Assembly (NCBI GenBank): GCA_040954595.2
Contig: CM082591.2
Location: 7,616,047-7,680,046, forward strand
Direction of reading: 5' to 3'
Source of the DNA: Balanoglossus misakiensis
Lineage: Eukaryota > Animalia > Hemichordata
DNA length: 64,000 bases
Part shown: piece after piece, positions 6,001 through 48,102 of the stretch
How positions within the stretch are numbered: the stretch's first letter is position 1
Layout: every line of letters begins with the position of its first letter
The notes under the pieces: generated by a model
What the model saw: only the letters and a program-made list of their open reading frames with translations
What the model was told of the DNA's origin: nothing
The model's database searches: none
Position numbers and translations under genes: made by a program

Positions 6001-9000
6001 TTAAAATTTCTGAATTTTTATGACACCTTAAGTGCAGCATGCAAATGTAATGTATCATTATTCCTTTCAAAATTGTGGCCAATGTGATCCAACCAAAATA
6101 TCTGCTGTTGTTTTGTTTGATTATTATTCATATCTGGATCAGAGAAGTTAAAAGATTAACCATGCAATGTGGACTAAAATCCCATAAATGACCAGTTCTT
6201 GACCAAATTAAATCACTTACTTTGTTTCATGGCAGCCTCTTCAATGTCAGAATCTTTTTCTGTTTCCTCCCCTGGTGAAGTCAGGCGTGTTCTCTCAATC
6301 TAAAATTGAAACAAATGAATATATCAAATCCAAATCTAGATGAATTTCAATAGACAGTCATAGTGCAAATCAAATATTTGAGCCATGCAAGAGTTTATCC
6401 CAGTGATGTTGTTAAGAGTTCCCAGAAAGAAACAGCCAAACAATTACAATATCCTTCTCACAGCCATATCAGCTGGGCATCAATCAACATGTAAACGTCA
6501 CTGAAAATAGTAAAGACTTATTTACTATTTGGAAATTTCCCTGCGTGTGTGAAGTTGTGGACAAAGTATGCTGTTGAACATAGCTACATGTGTTGTAGGG
6601 ACATTAGCTGTAAAACTGGCTTCATTTTCGGTATTTTTGTTCTGTGTACCAAATTCAATTTCTTGTCCTACTACAAACAGCAAGGTACTCAGTACTCAGC
6701 TTGTCAAGATATCCTGTATGTGTGTAACAACCATTGTTATTATTGACAAATAAATTCTAGTCCGGACTTGAATTCAAATTTTGCATCATAACAGTGCTGA
6801 TACACATATATGTTGCATTGATAAGCTAAATGCTGGGCATTACAACTAACATCTAAGCATACCTGATTCAGTATTTCATCAACACTTCCCTCTTCTACGT
6901 TGTCACCATATAATTTCAATGGTCCTATTCCCCCACCATCTCCTGAAAGTTAGTAAAATATTCAATGGATTTTGATTTGCATAATTTTATTTCTCTGAAA
7001 GTTTCTTGGGGTTAAAAAAATTTGCAATGCATGAAACTTAAATTATCTTATATGAGTCACAGCTCTAACAAGTTTCATTTTATAGAAATGTAAAATAACA
7101 AACTTCTTAATCAAATCTTATTCTTAATCATAATCTTAATCTGTCACCTGTGTTAATTCAGTATTAAGTATAATTTTCTCCTTCCTCCAAGTGATCAATC
7201 CACACTCTCTTATTCTTTGAATTTGTATTGTTTCTTGGTTGAATCAATATATAGTTTTACGGCAAACCATCTCATCTGACAAGAAAAACTTACTGTTCAG
7301 AAAGAATAGTTCCAGTTCATCAAACCTGGCTTGGTCATATGTTGCTGTCAACTGTAGTGGTATTCCAGCTGTGTTGGCCTCTGTCATTTCATCTGTCATC
7401 AAGATTGGTTCTAATGCCTTGGCTAAACTTCTTGAATCTTCAAGACAGCTTCCCCGCAATCGGTAGAGATTATAAAGTCTACGCATGTTGGCTGTGATTT
7501 GCAGAGACCCTGATTTCATACTGGTTATTTCCACTTCACCCAAATTCTCAGTGCAGACTTTCTTGACTTTCTCAGTGTCATCACCATTGGATACCACATC
7601 AGATGCTCTTCTCTTCAACTGTTGTTTGCAGTTGTTCCAAGCTGTAGATGCTGCCTGTTGCCTTTCCTCATTCTGGCCCTCATTTTCTGCTCGATGTTGC
7701 TGATAGGCAGTTTCATCCAGTTGGGCATGAACTTGAATTGTTGTGTCGGCATGATGATCTGAAGATTTTAGGAAATGGGGCAATACTAAACTCAATCTAA
7801 GACAAAATAATGAGTACGCTTAATTTATCGCCACCCTGGAAAACCATAAGTCATACGGTTTTTGTTAAACTCCGTCTCCCAAGAAAAAAACTTAAATTTG
7901 TAGGGCTTCAAAAATATGTATTGTGGGAAAATCAACAATATATAACCTCACTTGCACTAAACTAAGTTGACTAGTACAGGTACTAAGCACAACAGTTAGA
8001 TTATACAATTACGCAGATGGCCATTGAAAAGTCAATGGGTCAAGGACCTTTACTTTAAGTCTAGGAACATTTTAATCTTGTCAACAGGCGCCACCAAGAA
8101 AGTTGTTTTTATTAATAATTTTGAAATTGTCTCCTACCTGCTGTATTTCTTGTGTCCTTGCCACATGGATCAACTCCTTCTTGTTCCCTCATTCGGTCTG
8201 GTGTCAATAAACTGGCAAATGTGGCATAACTCTTATCAACATCTTCACTCTCCATGAAAGCCTTCTTCAGCTCCTTAGCTTCTTCAAAAGCTAACCTGGT
8301 CTTCTTGACACTCCATATTATCTTCTCTGAAATCTTATCAGATGAGTGTGACACTACAAATTTGTCTGCGTGGTATGGAAAGTATTCCTTGACTAACTCC
8401 CCAAGCTGGGAATATTCATCAGGATAGGTTGGTAGTCCAACTGCTATAGATTCTAAACCGCTATACGGATAGTCCTTGTAGACAGAGACGGGAAGACAAC
8501 TGTGAGATTGTTGAAGTGATGTTGGCAGAGTGCTTGCTGAGTAACCTGAGTAGAGTGTAGGGGTGACATGACTACTCTTCATCTGGTCTTGAAGATGCTC
8601 CAGTTCAGCCTTACCTGCTTGTGGAGAAGCTCCTTGTATTGACCACTTAGGAGGTTTGTGGGAAACATCTTTCAGCTTTTTTGATGCACTTCCAATAGCA
8701 GCTGCCAGTGTCTCACACCTGTCCAAGGCTTCTTGTGTATCAATTTGGCCATACGTCAGTATGTTGTGTGTAGTGACTTTGTCTGGTATGGTTGGGTCTT
8801 TTCTGAAAAAGACTTCTGCAGGTCTGGGGAAAATCTCTGCATGAGGGATCTTGAAAAGTTGCTTTCCAGAATATTCTGCTCGGTATTGGTTTTCAAAGTG
8901 TGCGAACATGCTTGGACCAATTGAAAATATGAGGTCAGCTTCACTGGCCAGCTTTAGCATCATTTCACTAAACTTCCCTGGAGGTAGTTTCAACAGACAG

Positions 9001-10274
9001 TTGCCTTCTTCATAGGCATGGTTGATCATTACAAGTTTTGCATCAGGAAACAATTTTTTTCTGATATTTGCAGCAGCAAATCCAGTTCTTGGAGCATAAC
9101 CAACAACATATTTGATGTTTTGTAGCTGTCTGAGGTGAGGGTAGTAGATTTCATGATATTTCGTCAACCATTTTAAATGTGGCTGATCATCTTCTGGCTC
9201 TGCAGTTCTGTCTTCTTCTTGTTGTTGTGCTGGAATCAATTTAACCCGACACTTGGCAGCATCTGCCTTCTGGTCGTCACTGACTTTGACACCAACAAAT
9301 GTGGAGTAGGCGTTAACAGGTGTTTCTTCTTTGACTTTTCTTGCAGAGAAATCTTGTACAAGAGTTCTGTGAAACCCAGTCAAGCCACAATCTTCTTTGT
9401 TCCAGTCGTCATACACAAATAATACGCCAGGAGGTGGATCTGGAAGATGGAGTTGATGAAGTTTGGCTTCAGGGAAGAGACTTTCGTGGATTGCTTTGGC
9501 TGCATTCTGTGTCTTTGGAGAATATCCGACTACATGTTGGATGTTTGTCAGTTCCTTCAGTCCAGGGAAGTATGTATCATGGTGAACAAGCCAGTTTATT
9601 ACAGGGGGGTCTTCATGAGGATCCAATCTCTTGTCTCTTACAGCTGGGATCAAAGTAGCACCAACACTCTCTGCATCTTTCTTTTGTTCTTCACTCACTT
9701 CAACTTCAAGGGTAGTACAGTTGAATTCAGAAACTTCATCTGGCTTCAGTTTTTCTTCTCGAAATTCAGTGACAAGTTTGTTAGTTGGTGTTGTTGTCTG
9801 ATCTTCTGATTCTGTCTGCCAGGTTTGCATGACCATTAATGCTGCCACAGGTGGTGGGTCAGGAAGACTGAGTTGGTAAAGTTTGGCTTCAGGGAAGAGA
9901 CTTTCATGAATTGCTTTGGCTGCAGTGTGTGTCTGTGGAGAATATCCGACTACATGTTGGATGTTTTGCAGCCCCTTCAAGTCTGGGAAGTATGTACCAT
10001 GGTGAACAAGCCAGTGTACTCCAGGGGGGTCTTCATGAGGATCCATCCTCTCGTCTCTTATAGCTGGGATCAAAGTAGCATCAACACTCTCTGCATCTTT
10101 CTCTTGTTCTTCACTAACTTCAACTTCAAGGGTAGTACACAGGAATTCAGAAACATTCTCAGACTGGAGTGTGTTTTCTTTGAGATGTTTGATTATAGCT
10201 TGAGTTGGTTGGGAGGTTTTTGCCTCCTTGTCCCATGATTTCAATACAACCAGTGCTGCAGATGGTTCTGACAT
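1..10274 (-). CDS. Paralogue A (3' end runs off the window): GT half-domain repeats + GT4-like glycosyltransferase + TRADD-N-like + coiled coil + NHL protein. Predicted exons 10274-8138, 7758-7294, 6942-6863, 6299-6221, 5551-4838, 4696-4436, 3011-2862, 2742-2680, 2559-2497, 75-<1
   Basis: Every predicted intron has GT..AG ends and compatible phases (1,1,0,1,1,1,1,1,1). Exons coincide with ORFs 8112-10274, 7244-7795, 4767-5594 and 4344-4676. Near-identical to copy B. The last exon starts GHWSLRTLDG, as the NHL exon of copy B does. Confidence 0.85.
2405..2935. repeat. Three ~180-bp tandem units, each ending in the same exon 3' end and donor (two units in copy B, about 34920-35265)
   Basis: Recurring gaagttttgaatcaactgatccc...cacatacctgttttagaaggttttgctgaaac...cttcctgtag. 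Confidence 0.9.
3048..4145 (-). mobile_element. 5'-truncated L2/CR1-group LINE fragment in an intron of copy A
   Basis: GVPQGSVLGP at about 4060-4090, YADD motif, C-terminal HITPILYQLHWLPV...APILWNNLP, and a (TAT)n tail at about 3050. Confidence 0.9.
5166..5387 (-). repeat. Four perfect 54-bp coding repeats (TESVENKRKLVGEITKLQ) in the coiled-coil exon; single unit in copy B
   Basis: Visible in the DNA and in ORF 4767-5594 (275 aa) versus ORF 37096-37761 (221 aa). Confidence 0.95.
8138..10274 (-). CDS. Large exon of copy A: two ~140-aa repeats followed by a GT-B (GT4-like) domain
   Basis: 720-aa ORF with the repeated core TTLEVEVSEEQxKDAESVxATLIPA...HVVGYSP, which is homologous to the core domain's STFVGVKVSDDQKADAAKCRVKLIPA...YVVGYAP. 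C-terminal SGLESIAVGLP. Confidence 0.85.
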
Positions 10275-10424
10275 AATTACATTCCTGCTGGGAAGAAGTA
10301 TACCAGTATACAGTACGGTATAATACTGCTGTACCGGTAGGTGATGGTGAAATTTGTTTCAGGGAAAACTTGACAGTATGTAATTAGTATTGTGACATAT
10401 TCATGACTATCTATACTGAGTAGT

Positions 10425-10470
10425 GATTGGCTAACCAAAATGAATATGCATAAGATGGCATATATAAGGG
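10425..10470 (+). promoter_or_regulatory. Putative Pol II promoter in repeat A (reverse CCAAT 'gattgg' and TATA 'tatataag')
   Basis: Motifs are conserved in A1 and in A2 (about 27199-27242). Confidence 0.4.
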
Positions 10471-11333
10471 GTCTACCCAGGGTACCATGTGTGCCTTATC
10501 ACAGCGTAGTGGGACAGACAGCTGAAAGTATCACAACCTCGCTCGTCATCACAACCTTACTATATGGCTACGAAGCAACCTACAACGACAAAAGTCGTTA
10601 CGGTGCTGCAGACACGTATTATCACTACCTCCACGGTGACAAGAATGTCAACGATTAGAGTGGCCACGCCCTCAGTAACTTTACCCATAGTGACAGTTTC
10701 AACGTCAGGTGCCACGACAATGTCGGCTGGAGCGTCAACTACAATGGCCAGTACTGAACAGAGAGCAAATGCGGTAAGTCTCATTTGTATACCCTCTAAT
10801 GTACCCTGATATTTCGGTATTACACAAGCTGCTTGGTAGTCTCTGATATCTTCATTGAGACTTGCGGAATGCAAGACATCACGTCGGTAGTGATATTAGT
10901 TCGTCCCCATGTAGAATGATAAGGTATGGGTTTGACGAGAGTTGATGTGCTGACAGGCACGGAGAAGTTGGGTAGACGATAATAATGTAATAAGATACAT
11001 GAGGTTCGTCCCCTGAAGCACATGGTACGTAGAGAAAAGAGGGTAGACGATATGTAGTTCGTCCCCGGGTTTATGTGCGACATAAGAAGTTTTGGTTGAC
11101 GAAAGTAGAGTTCGTCCCCATGTTAACTGACTCGAGAAGAGAAGAGACGAGAGAGGAAGAAAGGAAAGAAATTACATGAAAGAAAAAAGCTGACGTGGCA
11201 TGGGAAATGTGCCCAATTTGAATATTTGAAATACAGATGAGTACATGGTAATGAGATAGTATGATGTAATGAACGAAATCAACAGGTGGTTTGGTGACCG
11301 TAGCAATTCCACCAGTACGTATACAATGGTGAC

Positions 11334-11815
11334 GTGTCACTTCTGTTTTCACAGGTAGGACAAGTTGTTGGTAAAGATGTGCCAGGACCCTCAGGGGGAG
11401 ACGCCCGAACTTCGCTACAGTTGGCAAACGATAGATTTGAGAGAGAGTTAATGGAGCTGAGACTGTATGCGGAACGAGATGCCGCAATTTTCAACGCTGA
11501 GGAAGCACTCGCTCGTCTACAAATGGTCGCCGACACTGCGTTTGATGTCAGACACCCGGACTATCCGAAATATATTGCAATGATGCGAGCCCTAAGAAAG
11601 GAAAGAAATTCTGAGGGCACTGCCACAAATGTTGTTGGCCCTGATTGGGTCGGGGGGAACACGCGAAAATCATAGAAAAAATCGCAAAAGTTAAGAAGGC
11701 AATAGGGAGTGGTACCCTGATGGAGCAACGTAAGACGAGAAACAGAATGAGATGTTGGAGATGCCACATACTGCTGCAGGGCTGGGCACATCGCTCAAAA
11801 TTGTTATGTGAGAGA
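11334..11815 (+). pseudogene. Gag-like ORF1 remnant of the PAT-like element with a CCHC zinc knuckle
   Basis: Removing one base near 11768 restores C-H-Y-C-C-R-A-G-H-I-A-Q-N-C (CX2CX4HX4C). Confidence 0.65.
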
Positions 11816-12368
11816 CGATGGATAGGATAGAACGAGGAGAAGTTACAGAGATAGAGACAGAAAATAGAAAATGAGTTATGCGAAGTGAAGGCGACGTACA
11901 GGTTGAAATCTGAACTTGCACTTTGTTCCATTCTTCACTGTAAATGATTCAATATACCGCTGATCAAATGTTTTCTAAGCATGAATAGTCTCCTGTTTAT
12001 TGTACGAATGTGCACGTTGGATAGATGCATTATATTTGGTAAAGCTAAGAAACAAGGATTTTGTGAAACGTATCCAGGAAAGGCGTGACTGGGGGAAGGA
12101 CCCTCATTCTAATTACATTCCTTCCTGTTAACCAGGCGGGGTTTTCACCCTATGCCATGTAGGTTAATAAGAGCTGAATCCCATCCCAGAATTTGATACT
12201 GGATAAAGATCAACCCTAGTGAAATGTTCTGTCCCGTTGTAGGTATACACCCCTGACATTCCAGAATGGGAGAAGGTGATACACCTGGACCCGAATGCCG
12301 CCTATCTTGAACACCTGTCAAGGGAAGTTAAATATGTTGCTTAGAACGGTTCTGCAGCGCCCTCATCG

Positions 12369-14419
12369 GTGATACCCCATCCGAAACACGTATTAGATAA
12401 CGGACTGCGAGTATCGGTTAAACAGCTAAGATTTCGAGACCCAGATTATTTTCTAGCCGGAGGGGTTCATACACAGAAAGAAAAATGGTTTGGTATACTT
12501 AAAGATCAAGATAACGAGAGACAAGTGGGGAGGTGGATAGAGAATGGCGTATCAGTTTTTGACTTCATCAAACCCTTTAGTGGCGAAATATGTGGTGTTG
12601 AATATGATTGTAGCTTTCCTCCAAGTAAATACCTCCCTAACAATCTGAATTGTCGTGGATATAAGGATTTTATTTCATCTACGATACTGGATAGAAACAA
12701 ATCCGGGGCCCTGGAAATTTGGGGCAGAGTTGGCAAGGTACCACCACCCTATATTGTAATGCCGCTAACGATCGAACCGACAAAACCCCGACTCTGTCAC
12801 GATCAGAAATATTTAAATAATTGGATCAAAGACATGCCTTTCAAATTGGAACTGGTCACTTATCTGCCTAGGTATATGGGGAAAAATCACTACCAGACAA
12901 AAATACATGACAAGAGTGGTTATGACCATGTTTTCCAAGTAGAGCCCTAATGGGGATACAGTGGGGTGGATTTTGGTACGTACCAACGACCCTCCCATTC
13001 GGCTGGAAATGTTCGCCATACATATACCAAACAATAGGCTTACCTGCAATGAATGAAGTTCGGAGATGTGGTGTACCGTCTAATCTTGATATCGATGATA
13101 GACATGCAGGGCAACTGGTAATGAATCACGGTATGAGTGACTTCGAGAAAGCAGAGGCTGCCTGTTTCATAATGTGTTATGTTATGATAGAGTTGGGCTA
13201 CACACTTGGGCTAAGTAAATGTATTCTCCAACCAACGCAAATTTTAGAGTATCTAGGTTTTGGTGTGGACACTCAGAGGATGGTTTTTACGATACCAGAA
13301 CCAAAAAAGCACAAGTTTGGAAAGCTTAGAGAATCTCTACTTAAAAGAAAGAGTGTCAGTGTTACCACCCTTCAACGTTTTCTGGGAAAATGTGTTTCAT
13401 TCACCTTGGCGGTACCAGTAGCAAGATTATTTGTGAGAAGGGTTGCCAAAGCCATAGCTACAGCACATAGCAGTAGCTCACAGATACCACTAACCGGGGC
13501 CCTACGTAAAGAGATAGCAGATTGGAGGAGAATTGATACCGGCAAGGATTGGGCGCGATGGAGAACGGAGAAACACGTAGAAATCTCGCTAGTAAGTGAT
13601 GCCTCACTGGGAGGATGGGGCGGTATTGTACGTACATCGGGAAGGGAAACAGTTGGCGACTATTGGCCCCATGGGTTGAGAAAAAAATCTATCGCATATA
13701 AGGTAGTCATAGCACTTAAAAATGTTCTTAGTGCCCATAGAGATATAGTTAGTAACACTAGGGTTAAGGCACAGGTGGATAATAAAGTTGCAGTGCACGG
13801 CTGGAAGAATATGGGCACACGAAATATGGAGGTTAATGATGCATTGTACCAACTGTACGAGATGGTGGATGACCTAAACATCATACTTGACATTGACTAT
13901 ATTGCATCGGCTGACAACCCTGCTGACGGTCCATCACGTAGACTGTCAGCGATGGATGCTCACCTCCTCCCGATATATTGGGATCGAGTAGAAAATGAAT
14001 TTGGTGATCATACAGTAGATTTAATGGCCCTTGACTCCAATGTACAGAAAAATAGGGACGGGCGCCCCTTAAAACATTACACACCATGGAGGACTCCCAA
14101 CTCATCAGGTGTTGATGTATTCGCACAAAGCCTACAAAGGGAAAATTGTTATGCATTCCCACCATTTAACATGATTGGCCCCATACTTAAATTTCTACAG
14201 GACGAACGAGCGTTGGTGTCCATGATCGTACCACAACTGTCGCCATGTTTATATTCGTGGCCTATAGTAGAAAATCAGGCTCTAAGGATGATCAAAATAG
14301 CACGTGCAGGAGATAAAGTCTGGGAGGTTCCCACAAAAATGGGCTATTGGGAACCAGTGCCAGCCCTGTACGATGTCTGGCTGTGCCGTATCCATTTCGG
14401 CTTGCAACAATACGGCTGA
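12369..14419 (+). pseudogene. Reverse transcriptase / RNase H / DNA adenine methyltransferase-like ORF of the PAT-like element (frameshift near 12950)
   Basis: TLPFGWKCSP; DIDD at the YxDD position; RNase H motifs SDASLGGWG, VDNK and NPADGPSR; MT-like HTVDLMA...NCYAFPPF. Confidence 0.9.
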
Positions 14420-14744
14420 ATGTGGAATACAAATAATATTTTAATGAAAGTACAGGAACGCATCTCATTAAAACGAGATATAACGAAATTATGAAGATGA
14501 AGTGGGAAATGTTACAGGGACAGGGTTTAGAATATTAAATAACCAATGTATGACGACACAGTGTGATCATTGGTGTATAATTGTAGACAAATTTGTAGAA
14601 ATAGCATGAGTTGTGACAATGTACCAAATGTTCAAAGCGGCTACCACATGCGGTCCGAAAGATAGTGTTTGTTAAATAATAAAGTTGTATTACCAATAGT
14701 ACTCATTGTCTTGTTTTCATGATAATTTGTTAACAGAGGGACAT

Positions 14745-15921
14745 GCTGATGGTAGGTACCCCACGACTATGGTTACCGGCAGAGCAATTTAGGGAATGCC
14801 ACTACCCAAATGATGTTAACTTTAACTTCTGCCAGCAATAATGTGGAACAAGACGTCTTGCTGACGTCTGTGAGGCAGAGCGCCCTCAGCCTTCACCAGT
14901 TGATATTGAAGCCCTCGATACGAGAATAGCAGAACTTCAAGGTAAACTTCAAGCGACGCCATATACACAACGAAAGTCTAAACTTCAATCCGAGTTCGTG
15001 GTATTCCTTTGAAGTATTGAACCCCCAAAGACGATTACCTCAGCTACACCGAAAGATGTGCTTAGATTCCTCGTATGGAAAGATAAGAGCGGTCGTACTG
15101 TAGTACATGATGGACCCTGCTCACGTTCAGACCCATGCCTGTGTCCGAACCGACTCGCCTTCAAAACAGTGGATTCATATATCGGCCAACTGAGATCAAT
15201 CTTTGAAAAGGAGGGTAGAAGAGGTGAATGGAATGCTAGGTTTGGTTTTGGAAACCCAGCTGCTGATAAGACAGTTAAACAATACTTAAAGATAGTGACG
15301 GAGGAACAAATGAAACAGAATGTAATACCAAAGCAGGCAATTCCTATAACAACAGAAACAGTTGAGAATATAGTTAAGTATATCAACTCGCAACTAGAAA
15401 GGTTTCCAGATATCGACCCATGCCATGCATATATATTGGCAAGAGACAGGGCTTTGTTTCTTACATTGCTATTCACAGGGAGCAGAGCAGGAGATTTGCT
15501 AATTGTTAACACAGATAACATAATAAATCTTCCTAATAGCGGGCTCCTTATCAATCATGTATGGGGTAAAACTCTACGAGATGGTAAAACGAGACCTTGT
15601 GCGATATTTACGAATGAAAATACTTTAATATGCCCTGTTACAGCACTGACTGAGTATGTTGAAATGACACAATCACTTTAGTATCAGTCTCAACCCAGGT
15701 TTTCTCTTTCGTTCAACTACTAGAGATGAGAAAATAGAAAATATTTCTTTGTCAACCAATGCCGCCAATTCTAGGTTGAGATTTTACTGTGGAAAGATAG
15801 GAATGTACCAGGGGGAGACTGTACACAGTTTCCGTAGTGCCTGTGTCATCGCGTTGGCCATGTTAGGATCATCAGTACCAGAGATAATGCAACATGTAGG
15901 GTGGTCGCAGGAGTCCACTGC
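14745..15921 (+). pseudogene. Tyrosine recombinase of the PAT-like element, 5' part (stops/frameshift; cut by an insertion)
   Basis: N-terminal Cys motif CHYPND..FCQ, then GSRAGDL, WGKTLR, HSFR and HVGW. Confidence 0.9.
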
Positions 15922-16007
15922 TATGGGGTGAGAACACCGCCAAAAATAGCTTATGTCTTTATTTGGTAGTTTTCTCATCATTATTATGTTATTATGTCAT
16001 TATTTGG

Positions 16008-16608
16008 CCATTACCTTGGCCATTATTTGGTTCGCTCGACATTACCTCGACATTACCTCGGTCATTATTTGGTTCGCTCGACATTACCTCAACATTACCT
16101 CGGTCATTATTTGGTTCGCTCGACATTACCTCGACCATTACCTCGGCCATTATTTGGTTCGCTCGACATTACCTCGACCATTACCTCGGCCATTATTTGG
16201 TTCGCTCGACATTACCTCGACCATTACCTCGGCCATTATTTGGTTCGCTCGACATTACCTCGACCATTACCTCGGCCATTATTTGGTTCGCTCGACATTA
16301 CCTCGGTCATTATTTGGTTCGCTCGACATTACCTCGGTCATTATTTGGTTCGCTCGACATTACCTCGACCATTACCTCGGCCATTATTTGGTTCGCTCGA
16401 CATTACCTCGACATTACCTCGGTCATTATTTGGTTCGCTCGACATTACCTCGACCATTACCTCGGCCATTATTTGGTTCGCTCGACATTACCTCGACATT
16501 ACCTCGGTCATTATTTGGTTCGCTCGACATTACCTCGACCATTACCTCGGCCATTATTTGGTTCGCTCGACATTACCTCGACCATTATTTGGTTCGCTCG
16601 ACATTATC
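16008..16608 (+). repeat. Modular minisatellite in the left TIR (19-bp CATTATTTGGTTCGCTCGA plus 11/12-bp CATTACCTCG(N)N modules)
   Basis: Directly visible, with 31-, 42- and 43-bp composite periods. Confidence 0.95.
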
Positions 16609-16918
16609 TGACCTGCTTTATTATTTGAACTCTTGCTCGGTACCCAGAATTCATTGCACAAAATGGCGACGGTATGAAAGTTTCGCAGGCCGTGGCCGAC
16701 GACAGTCTTGTAAACAGCACGCGTGGGTAAACAGTCAGGCCTCGAACTTAACGCCGGCCCACCGGCCCCGGGCCGGTAAATATTTATAGTGGGCCGGTTA
16801 TTTTCACATCTTGTCGGCCCAATTGGGCCGGTGAATATACACAAATAAATCAGTAAAACATACTGCAGAATCAATATTCTATTGTAAAAGTTATTTAGAA
16901 AGAAAGATTTCAAGAAAA

Positions 16919-19900
16919 ATTAAAGCTGCAAGCAGCATTGAAGGGGCCCAAGCATAGAGTTAATAACCATTAGAATCCATTCAGGGTTGTACCATTCAAA
17001 TGGCATTGCGTAGGCTGTATTTGCTCTCGATGTTGAGATATGGGGAAGTAGGCAACCACCTGAAATGCATGTCCTACAAGTACAAACACAACAACCAAAG
17101 GTGAACTTCTCCGTTGTAAGTACTTCAGTAAGTACTTCAAAGGTCAGGTGAGGGTACCCAAAAATTAGGATTCTTATATGGTTCATATTCAAGACAACGG
17201 AAAATCCTCGCCCTTTGGGTTGGTCAAATTATATATGGCCATAATAATGAGTTTCGCAAGTAAGTTACAGGTGGCCCCAGGAATTTAGCATTTCATGACG
17301 CAGAGGGTCCTACCCTACCCCTCCAAACACCTGGCTATATATGATGTGCATGCTAACATATGGAAAGCAGGTCAATGGACACCTGAGGTCACCCAAATAT
17401 TTGACAAATATTTTTTATTCCTGTTTATGTCATGTGCAACAAATCCTACATTTGCAGCCCTTTCACTTTGCCTACCATTAGGTATGCACATAATACATGA
17501 ATCAAGCAAATGTCACAGGTATCCCCCTGTATTTGGCATTTCATGATAGTTTCATCCCTCCAAATACCAAAGCTGCACCTGTACAACGTGCTGAGATATG
17601 GCACTGTACGACAGAGGTCATCCAAATCACCTTATACATTTGGGCAAAAACCAACTGACACTTACATTCGTCCCTGTGGAACAAAAACCACACATATCGC
17701 CCTGTTGGTTAGTGTCCAATTAAATGTACAAAATCAATGACTTAGGCAGGTGCAACAGGTGACCCCGCCTTTGGTATATCATTATGGTCCCATCCGTATA
17801 TCCCCCCCCCCTCCCACCACGCCAAAGCTGCATGCATCTGCTGTTATTCACTAAGCAAAAGTAGGTGAAATGTCACATAAGGTCGCCCACAACTTGACAG
17901 GAAAACGGACTTCATATTGATCCATGTGCAACAAATACCACGCTAGCATCCCTTTCATTGACCCCACAATTACGCATGCACATAATAGAGTTACGCAGGT
18001 ACGGTGTCACAGGTGACCCCCGAATCGGGCGTATTATTTTGGTCCCATACAGCTGCATGAAGCTGCGTGCCATTACGGGCGACCTGATAACCCCCACGGC
18101 GACCTGCGGGCCGACCCCCATACTGAACATCCAGTTGCAACGTCACGACTGAAGTAGGAACTTTTGAACGGCAACGAAGCCTGATCTCTGATTATTGCTG
18201 GTACCATACTCCCTTCGTGCAAGAAAATCACTGGTCTGCTTACGTATTTCAGCCAATTCCCCGAACTACTATCCACTACATGTGACTACCATGCTAATGA
18301 TGAAACCTCCCACAACATTAGCGACTGAGGGTCAAAGTCCGCTGCCGCATTACATTGAATGTTAACCAGTGTAGCCGGGTCTGCGTAGACACATTTGAAC
18401 GGCAACAGCTAACAAACTCAGCGTAATTCAATAAAACGCCCTAACACAGCCTGAACTCCGATAATGTGTTGTCCCAAAATTCATTCCGTGGAAAATAATC
18501 ACTGGTCTGTTTACGTATTTCAGCCGATTTTCCAAGGACTACTGCAACCCGCCTGCTAATGAGATCTCCACAACATTACGTAATGACGTTCAAAGTCCGA
18601 TGCCTCAGTGTTCGTCCTCAGCCCACCAAAAAATGCGGAAAATATTACAAAAATCTTCTTCTCAAAATCAACGTGGCCTAGGACCTTGAAATTTGGCACA
18701 GGGGATTTTGGCCACATGGTCTACAAAAATCGCGAAAAGAATGTACATGCCCCCATTAACGTGCAAATTAGGTCAATTTGAAAATTTCGCTCGATTATAG
18801 CCACCAAGTCACGTGACTAATTACAAATTCAAAGGGCAGGTGCACCAGTACTCATAGGCCCCAATCACCGTGCCAAATTTCAAGGTCCTAGGCCACGTCG
18901 ATTTTGAGAAAAACGGGAGCAAAAAAACGACTCAAGAAGAAAGAAGAAATATAGCTGCAAGCAGCGATGACGGGCACAAGCTTAAGCCGAAGGTCAAAGG
19001 TCATATGTGGTCACCCAAAATTTGGGCAAAAAGTTTTGACCCCCATACTAGTCCAGGTCCAACAGAAACCTGACCTCTAGCCCTATTGGTTTGTCTGAAA
19101 TTAGATATGCACATAATTAATGATGTAAAGTGTAAGACTCCATTAATAGTTCGATCCATCCAAACACAAATGCTGTACCTGTTCTGGATGCCAAGATATA
19201 GCAAAGTAGGTCAAAGGTCACCTGAGGTCACCCAAAATGTGGGCATAATTTTTGACCCCATACTGATCCATGTCCCACAAGAACAAAACCTCTAGCCCTA
19301 TTGGTTAGCCTGGAATTAGGTATGCACATAATTAATGAGATATGCAGGTGTCACTGGTGACCCCAATTTTGTCTTTTCAATTTTAGTCACAACCCTCCAA
19401 ACGCCAAGTCTGTACCTGCTGTGGATGCCGAGATATAGGAAAGTAGGTCAAAGGTCACCTGAGGTCACCCAAAATTTGGGCAATTTTTTTTTACCCTATA
19501 CTGGTCCATGTCCCACAAGCACAAAACCTCTAGCCCTATTAGTTAGCCCAGAATTAGGTATGCACATAATTAATGAGTTAAGCAGGTGTTACAGGTGAGC
19601 CCAAAATTTTGCCTTTTATTTTGGTCCCATTCTGCTCATGGGCCAATAGAGAGTCACAGTACAGGACCATTGCACAGATGTGGACATAGCATCATAGCTT
19701 AACTATAGAAAGTATAGGCCTATGGCTGGGTCCAAAAAATATGAAATATAACATTTAAAAATCTTCTTCTCAAAATTGACTTGGCCCAGAGCCTTGAAAT
19801 TTAGCATGTAGGACACTGACCATATGGTCCGCAAAATGATTGCACAGAATTTTGATATCGTCATTCATATGCAAATTAGGCCCATTTGAAAACTTTGCCC

Positions 19901-22900
19901 ATATATGGTCATCAGGTCATGTGACTAATTACACATTCACGAGGGTACTGCACGAGCTCTCATAGACCTGCACCATTGTGCCAAGTTTGAGATTTGTAGG
20001 TTCAGCCGTTTTCAAGATCTACCTGAGCAAAAAAACTACACAAGAAAAAAAAAAAAAAAATATAGCTGCAAGCAGCGATGACGGGCACAAGCTTAAGCCG
20101 AAGGTCAAAGGTCATATGTGGTCACCCAAAATTTGGGCAAAAAGTTTTGACCCCTATACTAGTCCAGGTGCAACAGAAACCAGACCTCTAGCCCTATTGG
20201 TTTGTCTGAAATTATATATGCGCATAATTAATGATGTAAAGTGTAAGACTCCATTAATAGTTCGATCCATCCAAACACAAATGCTGTACCTGTCCTGGAT
20301 GCCGAGATATAGGAAAGTAGGTCAAAGGTCACCTGAGGCCACCTGAAAGTTGAGCAAAAAATTTTGACCCCATACTAGTCCAGGTCCAAGAAAAACCAGA
20401 CATCTAACCCTATTGGTTCGCCTAGAATTAGATATGCACATAATTAATGAGGTAAAGTATAAGGCTCCATTAGGAGTCACAACCCTCCAAATGCCAAAGC
20501 TGTATCTGTGCTGGTTGCCGAGATATGGTAAAGTAGGTCAAAGGTCACCTGAGGTCACCCAAAATTTGGGCAAAAATTTTTGATCCCATACTGGTCCATG
20601 TTCAACAAAAATCAAACCTCTAGCCATATTGGCTAGCCTGGAATTAGGTATGCACATAATTAATGAGATATGCAGGTGTCACAGGTGACCTTCAATTTTG
20701 TCTTTTCAATTTTAGTCACAACCCTTCAAACGCCAAGTCTGTACGTGCTGTGGATGCCGAGATATAGGAAAGTAGGTCAAAGGTCACCTGAGGTCACCCA
20801 AAATTTGGGCAAAAAATTTTGATCCCATACTGGTCCATGTCCCACAAGAACAAAACCTCTAGCCCTATTAGTTAGCCTGGAATTAGGTATGCACATAATT
20901 AATGAGTTAAGCAGGTGTTACAGGTGAGCCCAAAATTTTGCCTTTTATTGTGGTCCCATTCTGCTCACGGGCCAATAGAGAGTCACTATACAGGACCATT
21001 GCACAGCCAACGTGGACATAGCGTGATAGCTTAACTATAGAAAGTATAGGCCTATGGCTGGGTCCAAAAATATGAAAAATAAAAAAATCTTCTTCTCAAA
21101 ATAGACTTGGCCCACGGCCTTGACATTTGGCATGTAGGACACTGACCACATGGTCCGCAAAAATCGCTAAAAGAATTTTGATATCTCCATTCATATGCAA
21201 ATTAGGCCCATTTGAAAATTTTGCCCATATATGGTCATCAGGTCACATGACTTATTAAACATTCACGAGGGTACTGCACCAGCCCTCATAGGCCTGCACC
21301 ACTGTGCCAAGTTTGAGATTTGTAGATTCAGCCGTTTTCAATATCCTGTTGGGCAAAAAAACGACACAAGAAAAAAAAAAAAAAGATGATAGCTGCAAGC
21401 AGCGATGACGGGCACAAGCTTAAGCCGAAGGTCAAAGGTCATATGTGGTCACCCAAAAATTGGGCAAAAAGTTTTGACTCCCATACTAGTCCAGGTCCAA
21501 CAGAAACCAGACCTCTAGCCCTATTGGTTTGTCTGAAATTAGATATGCACATAATTAATGATGTAAAGTGTAAGACTCTATCAATAGTTCGATCCATCCA
21601 AACACAAATGCTGTACCTGTTCTGGATGCCGAGTTATAGGAAAGTAGGTCAAAGGTCACCTGAGGCCATCCGAAAGTTTAGCAAAAAATTTTGACCTCAT
21701 ACCAGTCCAGGTCCAACAAAAATCAGGCCTCTAACCCTATTGGTTCGCCTAGAATTAGATATGCACATAATTAATGGGGTAAAGTATAAGGCTTCATTAG
21801 GAGTTTCATGCCTCCAAATGCCAAGGCTGTATCTGCGCTGGTTGCCGAGATATGGTAAAGTAGGTCAAAGGTCACCTGAGGTCACCCAAAATTGGGCAAG
21901 AAATTTTAACCCCATACTGGTCCATGTTCAACAAAAATCAAACCTCTAGCCCTATTGGCTAGCCTGGAATTAGGTATGCACATAATTAATGAGATAAGCA
22001 GGTGTCACAGGTGACCCCTAATTTTGTCTTTTCAATTTTAGTCACAACCCTCCAAACGCCAAGTCAGTACCTGCTGTGGATGCCAAGATATAGGAAAGTA
22101 GGTCAAAGGTCACCTGAGGTCACCCAAAATTTGGGCAAAAATTTTTGATGCCATACTGATCCATGTCCCACAAGAACAAAACCTCTAGCCTTATTAGTTA
22201 GCCTGGAATTAGGTATGCACATAATTAATGAGTTAAGCAGGTGTTACAGGTGAGCCCAAAATTTTGCCTTTTATTGTGGTCCCATTCTGCTCACGGGCCA
22301 ATAGAGAGTCACTGTACAGGACCATTGCACAGCCGACGTGGACATAGCGTCATAGCTTAACTATAGAAAGTATAGGCCCATGGCTGGGTTCAAAAATATG
22401 AAAAATAAAAAAATCTTCTTCTCAAAATAGACTTGGCCCACGGCCTTGACATTTGGCATGTAGGACACTGACCACATGGTCTGCAAAAATCGCTAAAAGA
22501 ATTTTGATATCTCCATTCATATGCAAATTAGGCCCATTTGAAAACTTTGCCCATATATGGTCATCAGGTCACATGACTAATTAAACATTCACAGGGATAC
22601 TGCACCAGCTCTCATAGACCTACACCATTGTGCCAAGTTTGAGATTTGTAGGTTCAGCCGTTTTCAAGATCTACCTGAGCAAAAAAACTACACAAGAAAA
22701 AAAAAAAAAAAAATATAGCTGCAAGCAGCGATGACGGGCACAAGCTTAAGCCGAAGGTCAAAGGTCATATGTGGTCACCCAAAAATTGGGCAAAAAGTTT
22801 TGACTCCCATACTAGTCCAGGTCCAACAGAAACCAGACCTCTAGCCCTATTGGTTTGTCTGAAATTAGATATGCGCATAATTAATGATGTAAAGTGTAAG

Positions 22901-24152
22901 ACTCTATCAATAGTTCGATCCATCCAAACACAAATGCTGTACCTGTTCTGGATGCCGAGATATAGGAAAGTAGGTCAAAGGTCACCTGAGGCCATCCGAA
23001 AGTTTAGCAAAAAATTTTGACCCCATACCAGTCCAGGTCCAACAAAAATCAGGCCTCTAACCCTATTGGTTCGCCTAGAATTAGATATGCACATAATTAA
23101 TGGGGTAAAGTATAAGGCTTCATTAGGAGTTTCATGCCTCCAAATGCCAAGGCTGTATCTGCGCTGGTTGCCGAGATATGGTAAAGTAGGTCAAAGGTCA
23201 CCTGAGGTCACCCAAAATTGGGCAAGAAATTTTAACCCCATACTGGTCCATGTTCAACAAAAATCAAACCTCTAGCCCTATTGGCTAGCCTGGAATTAGG
23301 TATGCACATAATTAATGAGATAAGCAGGTGTCACAGGTGACCCCTAATTTTGTCTTTTCAATTTTAGTCACAACCCTCCAAACGCCAAGTCAGTACCTGC
23401 TGTGGATGCCAAGATATAGGAAAGTAGGTCAAAGGTCACCTGAGGTCACCCAAAATTTGGGCAAAAATTTTTGATGCCATACTGATCCATGTCCCACAAG
23501 AACAAAACCTCTAGCCTTATTAGTTAGCCTGGAATTAGGTATGCACATAATTAATGAGTTAAGCAGGTGTTACAGGTGAGCCCAAAATTTTGCCTTTTAT
23601 TGTGGTCCCATTCTGCTCACGGGCCAATAGAGAGTCACTGTACAGGACCATTGCACAGCCGACGTGGACATAGCGTCATAGCTTAACTATAGAAAGTATA
23701 GGCCCATGGCTGGGTTCAAAAATATGAAAAATAAAAAAATCTTCTTCTCAAAATAGACTTGGCCCACGGCCTTGACATTTGGCATGTAGGACACTGACCA
23801 CATGGTCTGCAAAAATCGCTAAAAGAATTTTGATATCTCCATTCATATGCAAATTAGGCCCATTTGAAAACTTTGCCCATATATGGTCATCAGGTCACAT
23901 GACTAATTAAACATTCACAGGGATACTGCACCAGCTCTCATAGACCTACACCATTGTGCCAAGTTTGAGATTTGTAGGTTCAGCCGTTTTCAAGATCTAC
24001 CTGAGCAAAAAAACTACACAAGAAAAAAAAAAAAAAAAAAAAGATGAAAAACCCCAGTAATACCAATAGGGCACAAGCCTGCTTGGCTTGTGCCCTAAAA
24101 ACTCCAGCAATAACAGAAGGGGACCAAGCGCCGGAGGGCGCTTGGTCCCCTA
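16919..24152 (-). mobile_element. Helentron-type non-autonomous element (HINE/DINE-1-like), family A: body 16919-18947, 5' end 24098-24152, split by the family B array
   Basis: 5' hairpin GGGGACCAAGCG..CGCTTGGTCCCC, 3' subTIR GGGCCCCAAGC with GCTGCAAGCAGC palindrome, insertion into a poly-T run without TSD, second copy at about 50937-52985. Confidence 0.75.
18948..24097 (-). mobile_element. Head-to-tail array of four HINE family B units (starts about 18949, 20060, 21388, 22713) with a single 5' hairpin at about 24068-24096
   Basis: Each unit begins atagctgcaagcagcgatgacgggcacaagc and contains ~220-240-bp internal repeats (ggtcaaaggtca). Hairpin AGGGCACAAGCC..GGCTTGTGCCCT. Confidence 0.8.
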
Positions 24153-24878
24153 AAAACAAAGTTTTGTGTCTTTATATGCCGTTTTTTCTTATTTTATCGA
24201 AGATATAATCGGCCGTCAACGCGCTGGCTGGGTTACGCGATTAAAGTTCATTGATTGATATGTAAATTAGGAGAAGCCAACGTACGCGCGCGTTGGTGAA
24301 CCCGACCTGACCCCTTCCACCCCATGCCCAGGCCATGCGCTCACTGCGTAAGCGTGTCTAAATATAGCTCGGATATATTTGCATAAATTACTGCTTTGTT
24401 CTTCTGAAGTTTGCCTGATAGAATAAAAATGAGTCTTAAAGTTTGGGTTTACTAAAACTTAGAAGGAAGTTTGTACTTAGTGTGCCATCAAAGTGGGAAA
24501 GGAAAGGAAAGACAAGGACACTGCTGCCAGGAGTCTAATACATCCAAGATGGACCAGAGAGCAGTGAATAATTCATGTATTTTTCCAGAACACCTATAGT
24601 CAGCACATGACATTACATACTTGAAAAGGGAAAATTTTTAAATCAAAACATTTCAGCTGATCCTGCTGATATTTTTTTTCAAAATGCATTTCTCATACCT
24701 TGCACTGGTGCGATTTGATATAATACACAATAAATTCCATCACCAATATAGCAGTAAAACACGGGATACAAAATCTGAGATGTCTTAGGATGTTTTTGAA
24801 CTAATCCGTAACCATTTTCTAAGAATGATAGATCTGAAACTGAAATTCTGAATTTGGTCATCCTGGGGAAAATACAGA

Positions 24879-25048
24879 ATATATTTGTGGTGGGCCATTT
24901 ATGTGTGTGGGGCCAAATTTTAATACTAAATTTAAACGGAGTGTCTATTGACACGTGCGTGTCAATAGACACTCCGTTTAAATTTCGGCCTTTAAATTTA
25001 GTATTAAAATTTGGCCCCACACACATAAATGGCCCACCACAAATATAT
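24879..25048. repeat. Nested palindrome in the core of the foldback element
   Basis: Outer arms of about 58 bp (atatttgtggtggg...tttaaa) around an inner hairpin cggagtgtctattgacac-gtgc-gtgtcaatagacactccg. Confidence 0.92.
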
Positions 25049-25537
25049 ATTATGCATGGGGTGGAAGGGGTCAGGTCGGGTTCACCAACGCGCGCGTACG
25101 TTGGCTTCTCCTAATTTACATATCAATCAATGAACTTTAATCGCGTAACCCAGCCAGCGCGTTGACGGCCGATTATATCTTCGATAAAATAAGAAAAAAC
25201 GGCATATAAAGACACAAAACTTTGTTTTTTTTCTTGAAATCTTTCTTTCTAAATAACTTTTACAATAGAATATTGATTCTGCAGTATGTTTTACTGATTT
25301 ATTTGTGTATATTCACCGGCCCAATTGGGCCGACAAGATGTGAAAATAACCGGCCCACTATAAATATTTACCGGCCCGGGGCCGGTGGGCCGGCGTTAAG
25401 TTCGAGGCCTGACCGTTTACCCACGCGTGCTGTTTACAAGACTGTCGTCGGCCACGGCCTGCGAAACTTTCATACCGTCGCCATTTTGTGCAATGAATTC
25501 TGGGTACCGAGCAAGAGTTCAAATAATAAAGCAGGTC

Positions 25538-26580
25538 AGATAATGTCGAGCGAACCAAATAATGGTCGAGGTAATGTCGAGCGAACCAAATAATGGCCGA
25601 GGTAATGGTCGAGGTAATGTCGAGCGAACCAAATAATGGTCGAGGTAATGTCGAGCGAACCAAATAATGGCCGAGGTAATGGTCGAGGTAATGTCGAGCG
25701 AACCAAATAATGACCGAGGTAATGTCGAGCGAACCAAATAATGACCGAGGTAATGTCGAGCGAACCAAATAATGGCCGAGGTAATGGTCGAGGTAATGTC
25801 GAGCGAACCAAATAATGACCGAGGTAATGTCGAGCGAACCAAATAATGACCGAGGTAATGTCGAGCGAACCAAATAATGGCCGAGGTAATGGTCGAGGTA
25901 ATGTCGAGCGAACCAAATAATGACCGAGGTAATGTCGAGCGAACCAAATAATGGCCGAGGTAATGGTCGAGGTAATGTCGAGCGAACCAAATAATGACCG
26001 AGGTAATGTCGAGCGAACCAAATAATGACCGAGGTAATGTCGAGCGAACCAAATAATGGCCGAGGTAATGGTCGAGGTAATGTCGAGCGAACCAAATAAT
26101 GGTCGAGGTAATGTCGAGCGAACCAAATAATGGCCGAGGTAATGGTCGAGGTAATGTCGAGCGAACCAAATAATGACCGAGGTAATGTCGAGCGAACCAA
26201 ATAATGACCGAGGTAATGTCGAGCGAACCAAATAATGGCCGAGGTAATGGTCGAGGTAATGTCGAGCGAACCAAATAATGACCGAGGTAATGGTCGAGGT
26301 AATGTCGAGCGAACCAAATAATGGCCGAGGTAATGGTCGAGGTAATGTCGAGCGAACCAAATAATGACCGAGGTAATGTCGAGCGAACCAAATAATGACC
26401 GAGGTAATGTCGAGCGAACCAAATAATGGCCGAGGTAATGGTCGAGGTAATGTCGAGCGAACCAAATAATGACCGAGGTAATGTTGAGGTAATGTCGAGC
26501 GAACCAAATAATGACCGAGGTAATGTCGAGGTAATGTCGAGCGAACCAAATAATGGCCAAGGTAATGGCCAAATAATGAC
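25538..26580 (-). repeat. Same minisatellite, inverted and longer, in the right TIR
   Basis: Reverse complement of the left array, about 1.04 kb versus about 0.6 kb. Confidence 0.95.
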
Positions 26581-26660
26581 ATAATAACATAATAATGATG
26601 AGAAAACTACCAAATAAAGACATAAGCTATTTTTGGCGGTGTTCTCACCCCATACACTGC

Positions 26661-26820
26661 TTCATATTACATGCAAATGTCTAAAGTCATGCTCCCATTC
26701 TCTCCCGCGGTACGACTACAACAAGAGGCAGTGGCAGATGTACACGGTGTATATAAAACATGTAACGAACTAAAGGGGGCCTCAGTGGCTTTCCCCTCGA
26801 CGGAGAATAAGTTTCAATAG
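26661..26820 (+). pseudogene. Tyrosine recombinase 3' part carrying the predicted catalytic Tyr
   Basis: Removing 15922-26660 restores HVGWSQESTASYYMQMSKV...NKFQ*. Confidence 0.88.
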
Positions 26821-29800
26821 GCACCAAGTTTTAGGACCAATAAGTTGACGGATATCAGACAAAAGGAGATGTTTTGAAAGCGTTATAATTGCGTACATAA
26901 GTGAATAAACACAGAAGCCATCCCAATATAAAGAATCCTGACAATATGTTCATATTAAGATGGTGTCCATCGGTATGGTAAATGTAGTGGCCAGGAAAAG
27001 GAAAAGTGTGTATGTATATGTGTGGGGTGCGTGGGAGGAAATGGGTCGATGATGAGGATTGGAGAGAAGTGTGTCCTTGGATATGGAGATATTAAGAAAA
27101 TATCGTAGAGGCACGAGACACTCGACCATTCCACTACTCCTTAATCAATCAAGACACCACTACACAGTGTAGATACGGAGCTATCTATACTGAGTAGTGA
27201 TTGGCTAACCAAAATGAATATGCATGAGATGGTATATATAAGGGGGCTACCCAGGGTACCATGTGTGCCTTATCACAGCGTTGTAAGACAGATAGCGCCC
27301 TCCCACCCACCCGAGGTTACGCATCGAAGATTATGGTATACCATTCAGCAAGTTGTGATGACGAGCGAGGAAAACACACGCCGTCACCGTGGTCAACATC
27401 CGACTCAACACAAGACACTCGACCATTCCACTCCTTAATCAATCAAGACACCACTACGCAGTGTAGATAGGGAGCTGCGTACTCTACCGGTATACTACGT
27501 GATATGACATGATTGTAAAGCAGCTCCCTAAAGGTCAAATGAGGTCACAGTCAGTGTAAAGCCAGGCCACAACATGAAGGATTAAATATTAACCATAGTC
27601 TGCATGTTGCATCATGTCCTACTCTGATTGGCAGAATAGTTGGCGCTTAATCGGAAGTGGCCTGACCAGAGGTTCCGTTAGATTTTTTTCTATGCGTACT
27701 TCAATATGCATTCATAATTTACTTTGCGTAAAATGTATCAAAATTGCATAGGAAGTTGAAAGCCTGTAACAGAACACCACCGTACAGTGTTGCAAAGTTT
27801 AATCTGTAATGTTGCCTGAGTGAAAATTGCAACATTTCTGTGCGTAAATGTAAAGTTACCTGCGCGTCCAGTTATTTTTAGCTTGTAAACCTTGCCTATA
27901 CAATTTCCTTATCTCTAGTGGCTAGAGTCAATACGTACTGGTGTACGCGTCCATCCTTGTCTTTGCGTAATTATGGTCAGAAAGGCGTAAAATATGCAGG
28001 ATTTTGCGTTAACGGAACCACTGGCCTGACTATAAATAATAATTCTCATACAGTGGTCGACAGAATTACAAAATGAGGGATTATTCTGCCAGGGATGTTG
28101 AACAAATGGAAGTTCATATATGAAAGTTCTAATGCCTTCAACAGTGTACATACATTAAAACAGAAGTTTGGAGTGTATGAAGCAAAGGAAATTAATTGTT
28201 CAGATATTCAAATCAAGAAATGTCTGAACTATAGAGTGCGTTGAATTTTAGGGTTTGACTAATCGGACCTGCACTTTTGAAATGATCAACTTCAATACAA
28301 GAACATACCTGTTGACAGCTGTAACAGAGCAGCTGAACCTCCCACAGGACACGGCTTGTTTCCAGGTAGATTAATAAATGCACAGATCCACAAATTTTGG
28401 AGGAAGTTGATTCTCATCAGGCAAAATCAGCAGAAAATCCTGGAGTTCAGTTATGGGCGTACAGGAGTGCTGCGTGCGGGTTGTCATGTGATATCTGTGT
28501 TGTACCCTGGTACATATTGACAGAGTCAGGACACAGTCAAAGTTCATTCGCTATCACCAACGTTCAGTTTGTGATACTTCCAAAAAAGGAGACTACTTAA
28601 TGTCAAAGCAGGGTTTTTTTAGTTTGTTGCCATGGCTTTCAAGTTTCAGACGAGCTGTGACTGCATGTGGAACAGTGATCTAAGTACAACCAGCTAGAAC
28701 TGCCCAGTGACATGGAAAGATTTGATTCTCAACACCACTGTAGCCTATATTAGTGGAGCGGCCAAACCCTTATTTTCATAGCGATTGTGCATTTTGTGAT
28801 AAAAGCACCAAACTTGGCTCAGATGTGTGTTAATGTGTACTAAACAAATTCAGATAGCGAGCCACTAAATATCTGTTGATGAGTTTCCGTGGCAACCAAT
28901 TTTTCAAAATGGCCACCAATGCAGATAATTTCACCCACCAAATAACAACTGTAAACACCAAAATAAATTTAGATTACTATATTTGATACAAGGAACTGTG
29001 GAAAGAATGATTTGCAAAGATATTATGGCTACTAAACTACTTATAGAGGTAGGTAAGTTATCAAAACACAATTTAAAGGCGCAACTTTTAATCCCTTTGT
29101 TCTCGGATTAATAGGTGTCTATGGTCAAACATTAGGCTAATTGCGATATTTTTAATAATCTGTCACTGTATGTGTATGTCATGATAATACAGAGAATATA
29201 CAAGTATACTATCAAAGTTTTGAAGTTGTTTACAAAATTCTGAAAAAAAGGAGACGTCATTAATGTATGAGATCAGGTAATATTATACAATATCCAACCT
29301 ATTTTTTATGCATGAAACCCACCAAATAGTGGTTTCTTACTGGCAATCAGAGAATGTTATGTCTGTCAATCTAACACACATTACATTCATCTCCAAGGCC
29401 ATCACCAACATCTGATGTAACAGAGGCTCTGATTGGATGGTGATCTCATATTCTGGTTATCAGTCATTAAAATAGCCAATCATAATTTATGATGCTGATT
29501 TGCCTCTACCAGTGTCTATTATCAGAGTGTGGTGCATAATTATCAAACTGTGTCTTTGGTCAGTCAACTGCATGCTCAAGATGATTGCCATCATCTTGTA
29601 CATACCGGTAAATAAGACAAAACAATTTTCAAGTTTTAACTCCTGCAATCACAGTGGATCAGCAAAACTTCCTTCAAATGATCTCTGTTGCTATTTTCGC
29701 TGCTGACATCAAAATCAGTGGTCTCAAAATCCCATTTGGACCTTATTTCAACAACTTCCTTGACCTCACCCTTTAAAAAAATGACTGTTTCCATGACAAC

Positions 29801-47675: not shown

Positions 47676-47883
47676 AGGGGAAATCCAGCCTAGCTGATTT
47701 CTACATAATTTGGTAGCTTTGAGGTCACTCTTTCAGAATAAAACATATTCGCCATGTATATTAGTCTCGCGATTTTTTACAGAATCGAGGGAAAGTTGGC
47801 AGAATTTCCAATATGGCGTTTACTGTAATTTGAATCATGGGAAAAAAGCGCCAGGACCCACTTCCGCCCACCAGCGTGGTTAA
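47676..47883. mobile_element. Truncated Kolobok-like insertion in the Gypsy pol
   Basis: Starts TTAA-AGGGG and is flanked by cagcgt(a/g)gttaa. The pol frame resumes as [11 protein letters not shown]. No right TIR. Confidence 0.5.
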
Positions 47884-48102
47884 GCACCCAATCAGAGTGT
47901 CCGGATCTTTGTCGTGTTCACGCTCACCTATCACAGGGAACGCGACCATCTAAGAAACTCACTAACATCAAGGATGTGAAGAGATACCTCGGCGTCACCA
48001 CTATAGCAAAAAACGGAATGTTAGTAGTCAAACACAATGCCCCTTTTTGCCCAACACAAGATTTCATCGTTGTTCCCAGAGCCGTTCTTGATGGTCTATT
48101 AA

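Follow-up and report, generated by a model that had tools for sequence, protein, structure and literature searches.

A 64,000 nt stretch of the genome of the hemichordate Balanoglossus misakiensis (GCA_040954595.2, contig CM082591.2, positions 7,616,047 to 7,680,046), here called the window, contains transposable elements nested to four levels. A retrotransposon at 10407–27476 encloses a foldback DNA element at 15922–26654, the left arm of the foldback element is split by a HINE, here named HINE-A, and HINE-A is in turn split by an array of four units of a second HINE, HINE-B. In the explanation that we favour, and consider probable, the foldback element likely entered once the retrotransposon was in place. 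The HINE-B array likely derives from at least three separate members of its family and may already have been assembled within HINE-A on arrival. The comparisons used the window itself, contigs of one public sample from one study (runs X1, X2 and X3) and 80 related loci in metagenome contigs. No part of the stretch was present in run X3. The four levels and their junctions, which were described in an initial annotation made from the letters alone, are present in the sequence as judged by self-comparison and in-silico excision. With a 6 bp target site duplication (TSD), long perfect inverted ends and an independent uninterrupted copy in X1 and X2, the nest is beyond chance.

The foldback element is flanked by the 6 bp TSD CACTGC at 15916–15921 and 26655–26660 (plus strand), as annotated, and uninterrupted relatives in X1 and X2 have a single copy of CACTGC. 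It splits the tyrosine recombinase gene of the retrotransposon between the H-x-x-W and YY motifs. When it is excised in silico, the frame is open across the junction from H-x-x-W into the YY motif, so the frame restoration previously claimed does occur, but only locally. The first 39 nt of the element are the exact reverse complement of the last 39, and between the non-repeated parts of the two arms there is 1 difference in 605 sites (0.17%). In contrast, the retrotransposon copy has 69 differences in 4953 bp (approximately 1.4%) from seven listed X1 pieces, with the host-flank piece left out, and is broken several times in places other than the foldback site. As the arms are nearly identical while the enclosing element is both diverged and broken, we firmly conclude that the foldback element entered a retrotransposon copy that was already resident.

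The left arm is in two parts (plus strand), an outer part at 15922–16919 that contains a 31/43 nt minisatellite (16008–16613) and an inner part at 24152–24327 that is identical at 176 of 176 positions to 25054–25229 reversed. The right arm (25054–26654, minus strand) also contains the minisatellite (25534–26568), and has the uninterrupted run of 8 A at 25225–25232 that had been noted. The arm minisatellites, within 15998–16613 (approximately 600 nt) and 25534–26578 (approximately 1030 nt), have the same unit types and the same start and end patterns and differ in unit number. They therefore turn over fast, while the adjoining non-repeated arm sequence is almost identical. Between the arms lies a centre at 24328–25053, in which 24565–24936 is 79–83% identical to an unclassified dispersed repeat at 62338–62686. 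This repeat piece ends in a hairpin with 80 bp arms (24879–25048) that is folded back against the right arm. One X1 contig covers 24283–24806, spanning arm and centre with 3 differences, and represents a foldback element with no listed link to this locus. No IS3EU transposase open reading frame (ORF), nor any other coding content, was found in the foldback element, and its assignment as IS3EU-type is from the ends only, TATGG..CCATA. IS3EU elements are described as having TA..TA ends and usually a 6 bp TSD (PMC10045372), and their ends are given as TAYGG..CCRTA in PMC12730594, where hAT6 is also listed as generating 6 bp TSDs. The termini, the TSD length and the long inverted repeats are thus shared with the IS3EU/GingerRoot elements described in those sources, but here there is no transposase and the arms are 1.2–1.6 kb with an internal minisatellite, a foldback-like build.

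HINE-A is on the minus strand, with its body and 3′ end at 16920–18949 (96% identical to a copy at 50936–52953), its 3′ subterminal inverted repeat (subTIR) and stem-loop at 16925–16953, and its 5′ end, which carries a hairpin, at 24097–24151. It splits the A-run of the foldback arm into 5 and 5 A, compared with 8 in the right arm. The second HINE-A copy (50936–52982, minus strand) contains no HINE-B and served as a proxy empty site. It is 4.0% diverged, lacks the outer half of the 5′ hairpin and has 5 A where the array-bearing copy has 3 and 5. This copy does read through the 16-mer quoted in the annotation, at 52947–52962, one base away from the place given. Uninterrupted HINE-A was also found in X1, and in both X1 and X2 the HINE-A 5′ end occurs at another site, with 3 A before a different flank.

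Both HINEs are in T-runs without a TSD, with 2 (HINE-A) and 3 (HINE-B) T more than the proxy empty sites. As the surplus represents variable terminal T, which has been reported for Helentrons (PMC4067079), the HINE cut points can be placed no more closely than to 2–3 bases. Thus, the assertion that every empty site can be rebuilt from within the window is exact for the foldback element, and for the HINE-A and HINE-B junctions it is true to within 2 and 3 A, respectively. Both HINEs have a 5′ hairpin holding a subTIR, a 3′ subTIR and the same short stem-loop. The subTIRs agree at 10 of 11 positions in HINE-A and 10 of 10 in HINE-B and differ between the two elements, although their bodies are 64–75% alike. 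This anatomy, together with central tandem subrepeats, the T-run target, the lack of a TSD and the variable terminal T, is shared with the HINE/DINE-1 Helentrons as defined in PMC4067079 and the oyster Cg_HINE described in PMC7492417. What differs from HINE/DINE-1 is that here the subTIRs of A and B are unlike and that whole elements form an array of unlike units with one 5′ hairpin.

The HINE-B array (18950–24096, minus strand) is inserted in the A-run of HINE-A and is made up of four bodies with four 3′ ends, a single 5′ hairpin and three junction types. Unit B1 (18950–20060) has a 216 nt internal deletion and is the most diverged, unit B2 (20061–21388) retains GATG, a four-letter part of the 5′ region absent from B1 and B3, unit B3 (21389–22713) has a junction with B2 that differs from the others, and unit B4 (22714–24096) alone carries the 5′ hairpin (24069–24096). 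B1 differs from B2 at 67 of 1086 positions (6.2%) and from B3 at 56 of 1084 (5.2%), and B2 differs from B3 at 64 of 1306 (4.9%). All three values are above twice the 1.4% found for the outermost element (p = 3e-9, 1e-5 and 2e-5, respectively), and on this basis the array is not a local duplication that followed the arrival of the retrotransposon. B3 and B4 differ at 3 of 1307 positions (0.23%) and are identical over the last 1000 nt. Tails of the B2 type were present in four other X1 contigs, among the pieces listed, and the B4 alleles at three sites are a minority in the family in X1 contigs. Summed X1 contig depth, which is not copy number, was approximately 5e4–1e5 for HINE-B, approximately 470 for the foldback element and 130–140 for the retrotransposon. 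This family is very abundant, and the B units have the look of distinct variants standing within it.

In the 925 columns outside the deletion region, B1 has 37 private sites, B2 has 24 and B3/B4 has 16 (p = 0.013), and this fall is the polarity expected if the array grew at its 5′ side. All four HINE-in-HINE junctions are in the first T-runs behind a 5′ hairpin. HINE-A and HINE-B contain 12 and 13 runs of five or more T, respectively, but the junction count was made post hoc and the longest run lies at that place. From sequence comparison, it appears likely that the array records several events, probably three or more further ones, which may have occurred here or elsewhere. Consequently, the containment order in the annotation is correct, while 'unambiguous' was too strong a word for the insertion order, as the foldback element and HINE-A each keep both ends and the B array represents several events. 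The nest fixes an order in time only for the retrotransposon before the foldback element; otherwise, it fixes only which element sits inside which. With both ends present, the foldback element or HINE-A could have moved together with its cargo, as foldback plus A or as A plus B. That a foldback element can carry cargo is visible here, as a piece of a different repeat lies in its centre and is present in another foldback copy too.

The nest could have arisen as follows. A circular copy of the retrotransposon would have joined the host DNA by a tyrosine recombinase crossover at CT. An IS3EU-type DDE transposase acting in trans would then have brought the foldback element into the recombinase gene, and HINE-A and HINE-B would have inserted by a rolling-circle process, with Helentron proteins supplied in trans and the T-runs gaining 2–3 T. 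The DDE and rolling-circle members of the three transposition chemistries named in the annotation are deduced from end structure only. New B copies may have entered the T-runs just behind the resident 5′ hairpin, with B1 the first and B4 the last. As nesting in place should leave stacked hairpins, as it does for A and B, some route for the loss of the extra hairpins has to be supposed. One option is that a composite was re-mobilized from its innermost 5′ end with the inner 3′ ends read through, in which case the array would have been assembled elsewhere. Alternatively, a newcomer may have been joined by homology or gap repair at the resident 5′ end, which could have happened here. More generally, it is conceivable, though we hold the idea only tentatively, that the T-run immediately behind the 5′ hairpin of a resident relative attracts Helentron-type elements, so that arrays would grow from the 5′ side by taking in different members of the family and be mobile as one unit. 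A newcomer from another family would then keep its own hairpin, as in the stacked A and B, and one from the same family would share that of the resident.

Were the nest instead the product of four single insertions that followed one another at this locus, the HINE-B array having arisen by local amplification of one of them, the containment and the existence of an empty site for each level would fit, as would the lack of a composite-bridging contig among the pieces listed. However, B1, B2 and B3 are 5–6% apart inside foldback arms that differ by 0.17% and an outermost element approximately 1.4% from its relatives, and the junctions differ among the B units. Amplification in place from one insertion is already contradicted by this, and we regard the scheme as a whole as unlikely. 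The head-to-tail arrangement with intact 3′ ends and the 3 differences in 1307 bp between B3 and B4 recall tandem truncated Helitrons such as those described in PMC5148889 and PMC7492417, and the array could accordingly have come as one rolling-circle concatemer of 5′-truncated units, as has been proposed for tandem Helitrons. Units and junctions derived from one circle should all be identical, but three of the four units are 5–6% apart and the B2|B3 junction differs, which makes a single concatemer quite improbable. An assembly artefact that joined similar B copies or haplotypes could account for part of the array or for the B3/B4 pair, given that no difference separates B3 from B4 in the final 1000 nt, that HINE-B is very abundant and that no read spans the array. 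Against it, the outer junctions are base-exact with the correct empty sites and B1, B2 and B3 are distinct, as is the B2|B3 junction, and we consider it very unlikely. Simple unequal crossover was also considered as the source of B3/B4 and rejected, as it would be expected to duplicate a junction already present along with the B2-type tail, and this is not seen.

Several points weigh against the explanation that we favour. The clock provided by the A1 and A2 repeats of the retrotransposon, 3 differences in 101 nt, does not by itself exclude a divergence of 5%. Private-site counts can reflect the source subfamilies rather than time in place, and the near-identity of B3 and B4 could be an assembly duplicate. 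No X1 or X2 contig among the pieces listed bridges A|B or arm|HINE-A, and X1 has no cover at 24186–24253. The distances of the foldback element (3/548) and of the retrotransposon (69/4953) to the sample copies are not significantly different when taken alone (p = 0.11), and inverted arms can be homogenized by conversion. Finally, all of the read evidence is from one sample and one study.

Precedents exist for parts of the arrangement. Helentron-like elements that self-insert near the 5′ end, and composites that were re-mobilized, are known from PMC5148889. Double insertion as a source of tandem elements is described in PMC5932611, terminator bypass in PMC4067079 and HINEs inside other repeats in PMC7492417. 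The self-inserted Helitrons of Fusarium (PMC5148889) and the tandem elements formed by double insertion (PMC5932611) resemble the HINE-B array in that an element has inserted within or next to a relative, close to the 5′ end, and in their stacked or shared termini. In those composites, as described, there are several 5′ ends and one 3′ end, whereas here there are four 3′ ends and one 5′ end.

The outermost element (plus strand) is a decayed PAT-like, ALOG-type tyrosine recombinase retrotransposon, recognized by its split direct repeats, an empty host site and reverse transcriptase (RT)/RNase H relatives. Self-comparison revealed repeats laid out as A1...B1-A2-B2. Repeat A1 is at 10407–10522 and repeat A2, 94% identical to A1 over 116 nt with the 3 differences in the 101 nt core, is at 27181–27296, while the matching repeats B1 and B2 are at 27112–27182 and 27409–27476. 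The whole layout, including the A2-B2 spacer, was found in 4 of the 20 relatives that had enough flank, from 39 loci tried. Inside the element are a broken gag-like region and an RT-RNase H-methyltransferase ORF (12300–14419) that is frameshifted near 12930 and was recovered by tblastn in two frames. RVT_1 was present in 25 of 25 aligned members, and among named relatives the one closest to the polyprotein belongs to the acorn worm Glandiceps talaboti (54% identity). The 156 residues that follow RNase H gave a model with a predicted local distance difference test score of 93, whose top fold matches were a cap adenosine N6-methyltransferase (E = 3e-4, template modelling score 0.68) and KsgA. 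Searches of Pfam, PHROG and PDB sequences returned no methylase match to this domain, but with the fold comparison it is predicted to be adenine N6-methyltransferase-like. The recombinase gene is in two parts, 14780–15921, with an ALOG domain (Pfam, E = 1e-19) and most of the catalytic domain (PHROG integrase, E = 6e-4), and 26661–26820, which encodes the C-terminus with a YY motif that is also found in relatives. This gene and its neighbours carry further stops and frameshifts.

In X1 and X2 there is a real empty host site, which the annotation could not supply, and in which the left flank runs straight into the right flank, joined at the CT common to both ends of the element. The X1 contig has 141 letters with no difference, and there is no TSD. 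As the host flank belongs to a multi-copy gene, this empty site is possibly from a paralogue. Over window positions 10160–16005, the X1 and X2 copies of the retrotransposon have indels relative to the window copy where the frames of the latter break, and it is therefore likely that less decayed ALOG-type copies exist. For animals, the account in PMC3537659 reports only inactivated copies of this class.

The labels given to the elements (PAT-like, IS3EU-type ends and HINE) are borne out by the split repeats with the methyltransferase fold, by the TATGG..CCATA ends and by the HINE anatomy. Split repeats and a methyltransferase domain distinguish PAT-like elements from Ngaro in PMC7192593, PMC9210276 and PMC6681497; Ngaro is defined by the absence of that domain in PMC9210276, and the PAT-like group is not monophyletic according to PMC6681497. 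An assignment to Ngaro was rejected because the methyltransferase domain is present, and one to DIRS-like elements, which have inverted terminal repeats with an internal complementary region, because the termini are direct split repeats and the only inverted repeat, of 19 nt, is internal. As it carries an ALOG domain, the element belongs to the PAT-like class described by Iyer and Aravind in 2012 (PMC3537659), as judged by repeats and domains. With this class, which is in the order DIRS, it shares the split direct repeats, a methyltransferase fold after RT-RNase H, the N-terminal ALOG domain of the recombinase, the lack of a TSD and a decayed copy in a marine animal.

It differs in its 112 nt A2-B2 spacer and in two features connected with it. 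One is an internal 19 nt inverted repeat between 10539–10557, in the 5′ region, and 27353–27371, in the spacer (longest match 19; at most 14 in 500 shuffles). It was absent from all 4 relatives compared, and on that ground was rejected as a conserved feature like the internal complementary region of a DIRS/PAT hybrid. It seems to be kept within its own family, as judged from a contig end at 10537.

The other is a C-run tract (27298–27312, plus strand; four G-runs on the minus strand), defined as 11 or more C in 16 nt, which is also found in relatives. Of 31 related loci with a recombinase match and a tail of 700 nt or more, 8 yielded a repeat pair. From these, L002 was dropped as part of a tandem array, and L018 was added from the layout survey. 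The tract is 95 nt before repeat B2 in the window and 33–59 nt before it in 7 of the 8 relatives (L006, L012, L015, L018, L024, L044 and L060), compared with 54 of 3000 random 230 nt draws. Among the seven loci, one pair is 80% alike, and in the one relative that lacks the tract, L029, the repeats may not truly be a B pair. From its position, the tract is a candidate cis-element for the copying of split-repeat retrotransposons. Speculatively, it might act as a G-quadruplex on the first cDNA strand or as a GC/CACCC box.

An apparent splice acceptor, that of the big exon of a GT4-conflict glycosyltransferase gene, lies approximately 115 nt downstream of the nest. The gene is present as an approximately 10 kb segmental duplicate (96%) at 1–10302 and 32513–42871. 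The duplicates have differing numbers of a 420 nt coding repeat, and contig depth suggests that the gene belongs to a large family. The copy at 32513–42871 was rejected as an in-window empty site for the retrotransposon because its intron is diverged there and does not align. Elsewhere in the window are an NHL-repeat ORF (31770–32606, minus strand), a decayed pol region like that of long terminal repeat retrotransposons (45811–49684; RT, RNase H and integrase-like frames), RT fragments of the long interspersed nuclear element (LINE) type (35472–36473 and 58402–61620) and a 142 nt palindrome (61950–62091). The LINE fragment at 58402–61620 is interrupted near 58758–59570 by an element with approximately 50 nt inverted ends, a second copy of which starts at 63624.

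Nested insertions are common, and the nest described here, though a clean teaching case, is ordinary in kind. All of its parts are further members of described element groups, and both nests and Helitron self-insertion have been described before. It captures three classes of transposon that have been active recently in a single marine invertebrate, and provides a caution for the reading of nests, as containment is not chronology when inner elements retain both ends. Two leads could carry wider weight. The positionally conserved C-run tract would offer a testable handle on the copying of split-repeat retrotransposons, and the other lead is the way in which unlike units come to form HINE arrays that have only one 5′ end. 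If insertion behind the 5′ hairpin of a resident relative does occur, dispersed HINEs would have a polar route, driven by transposition, towards satellite arrays.

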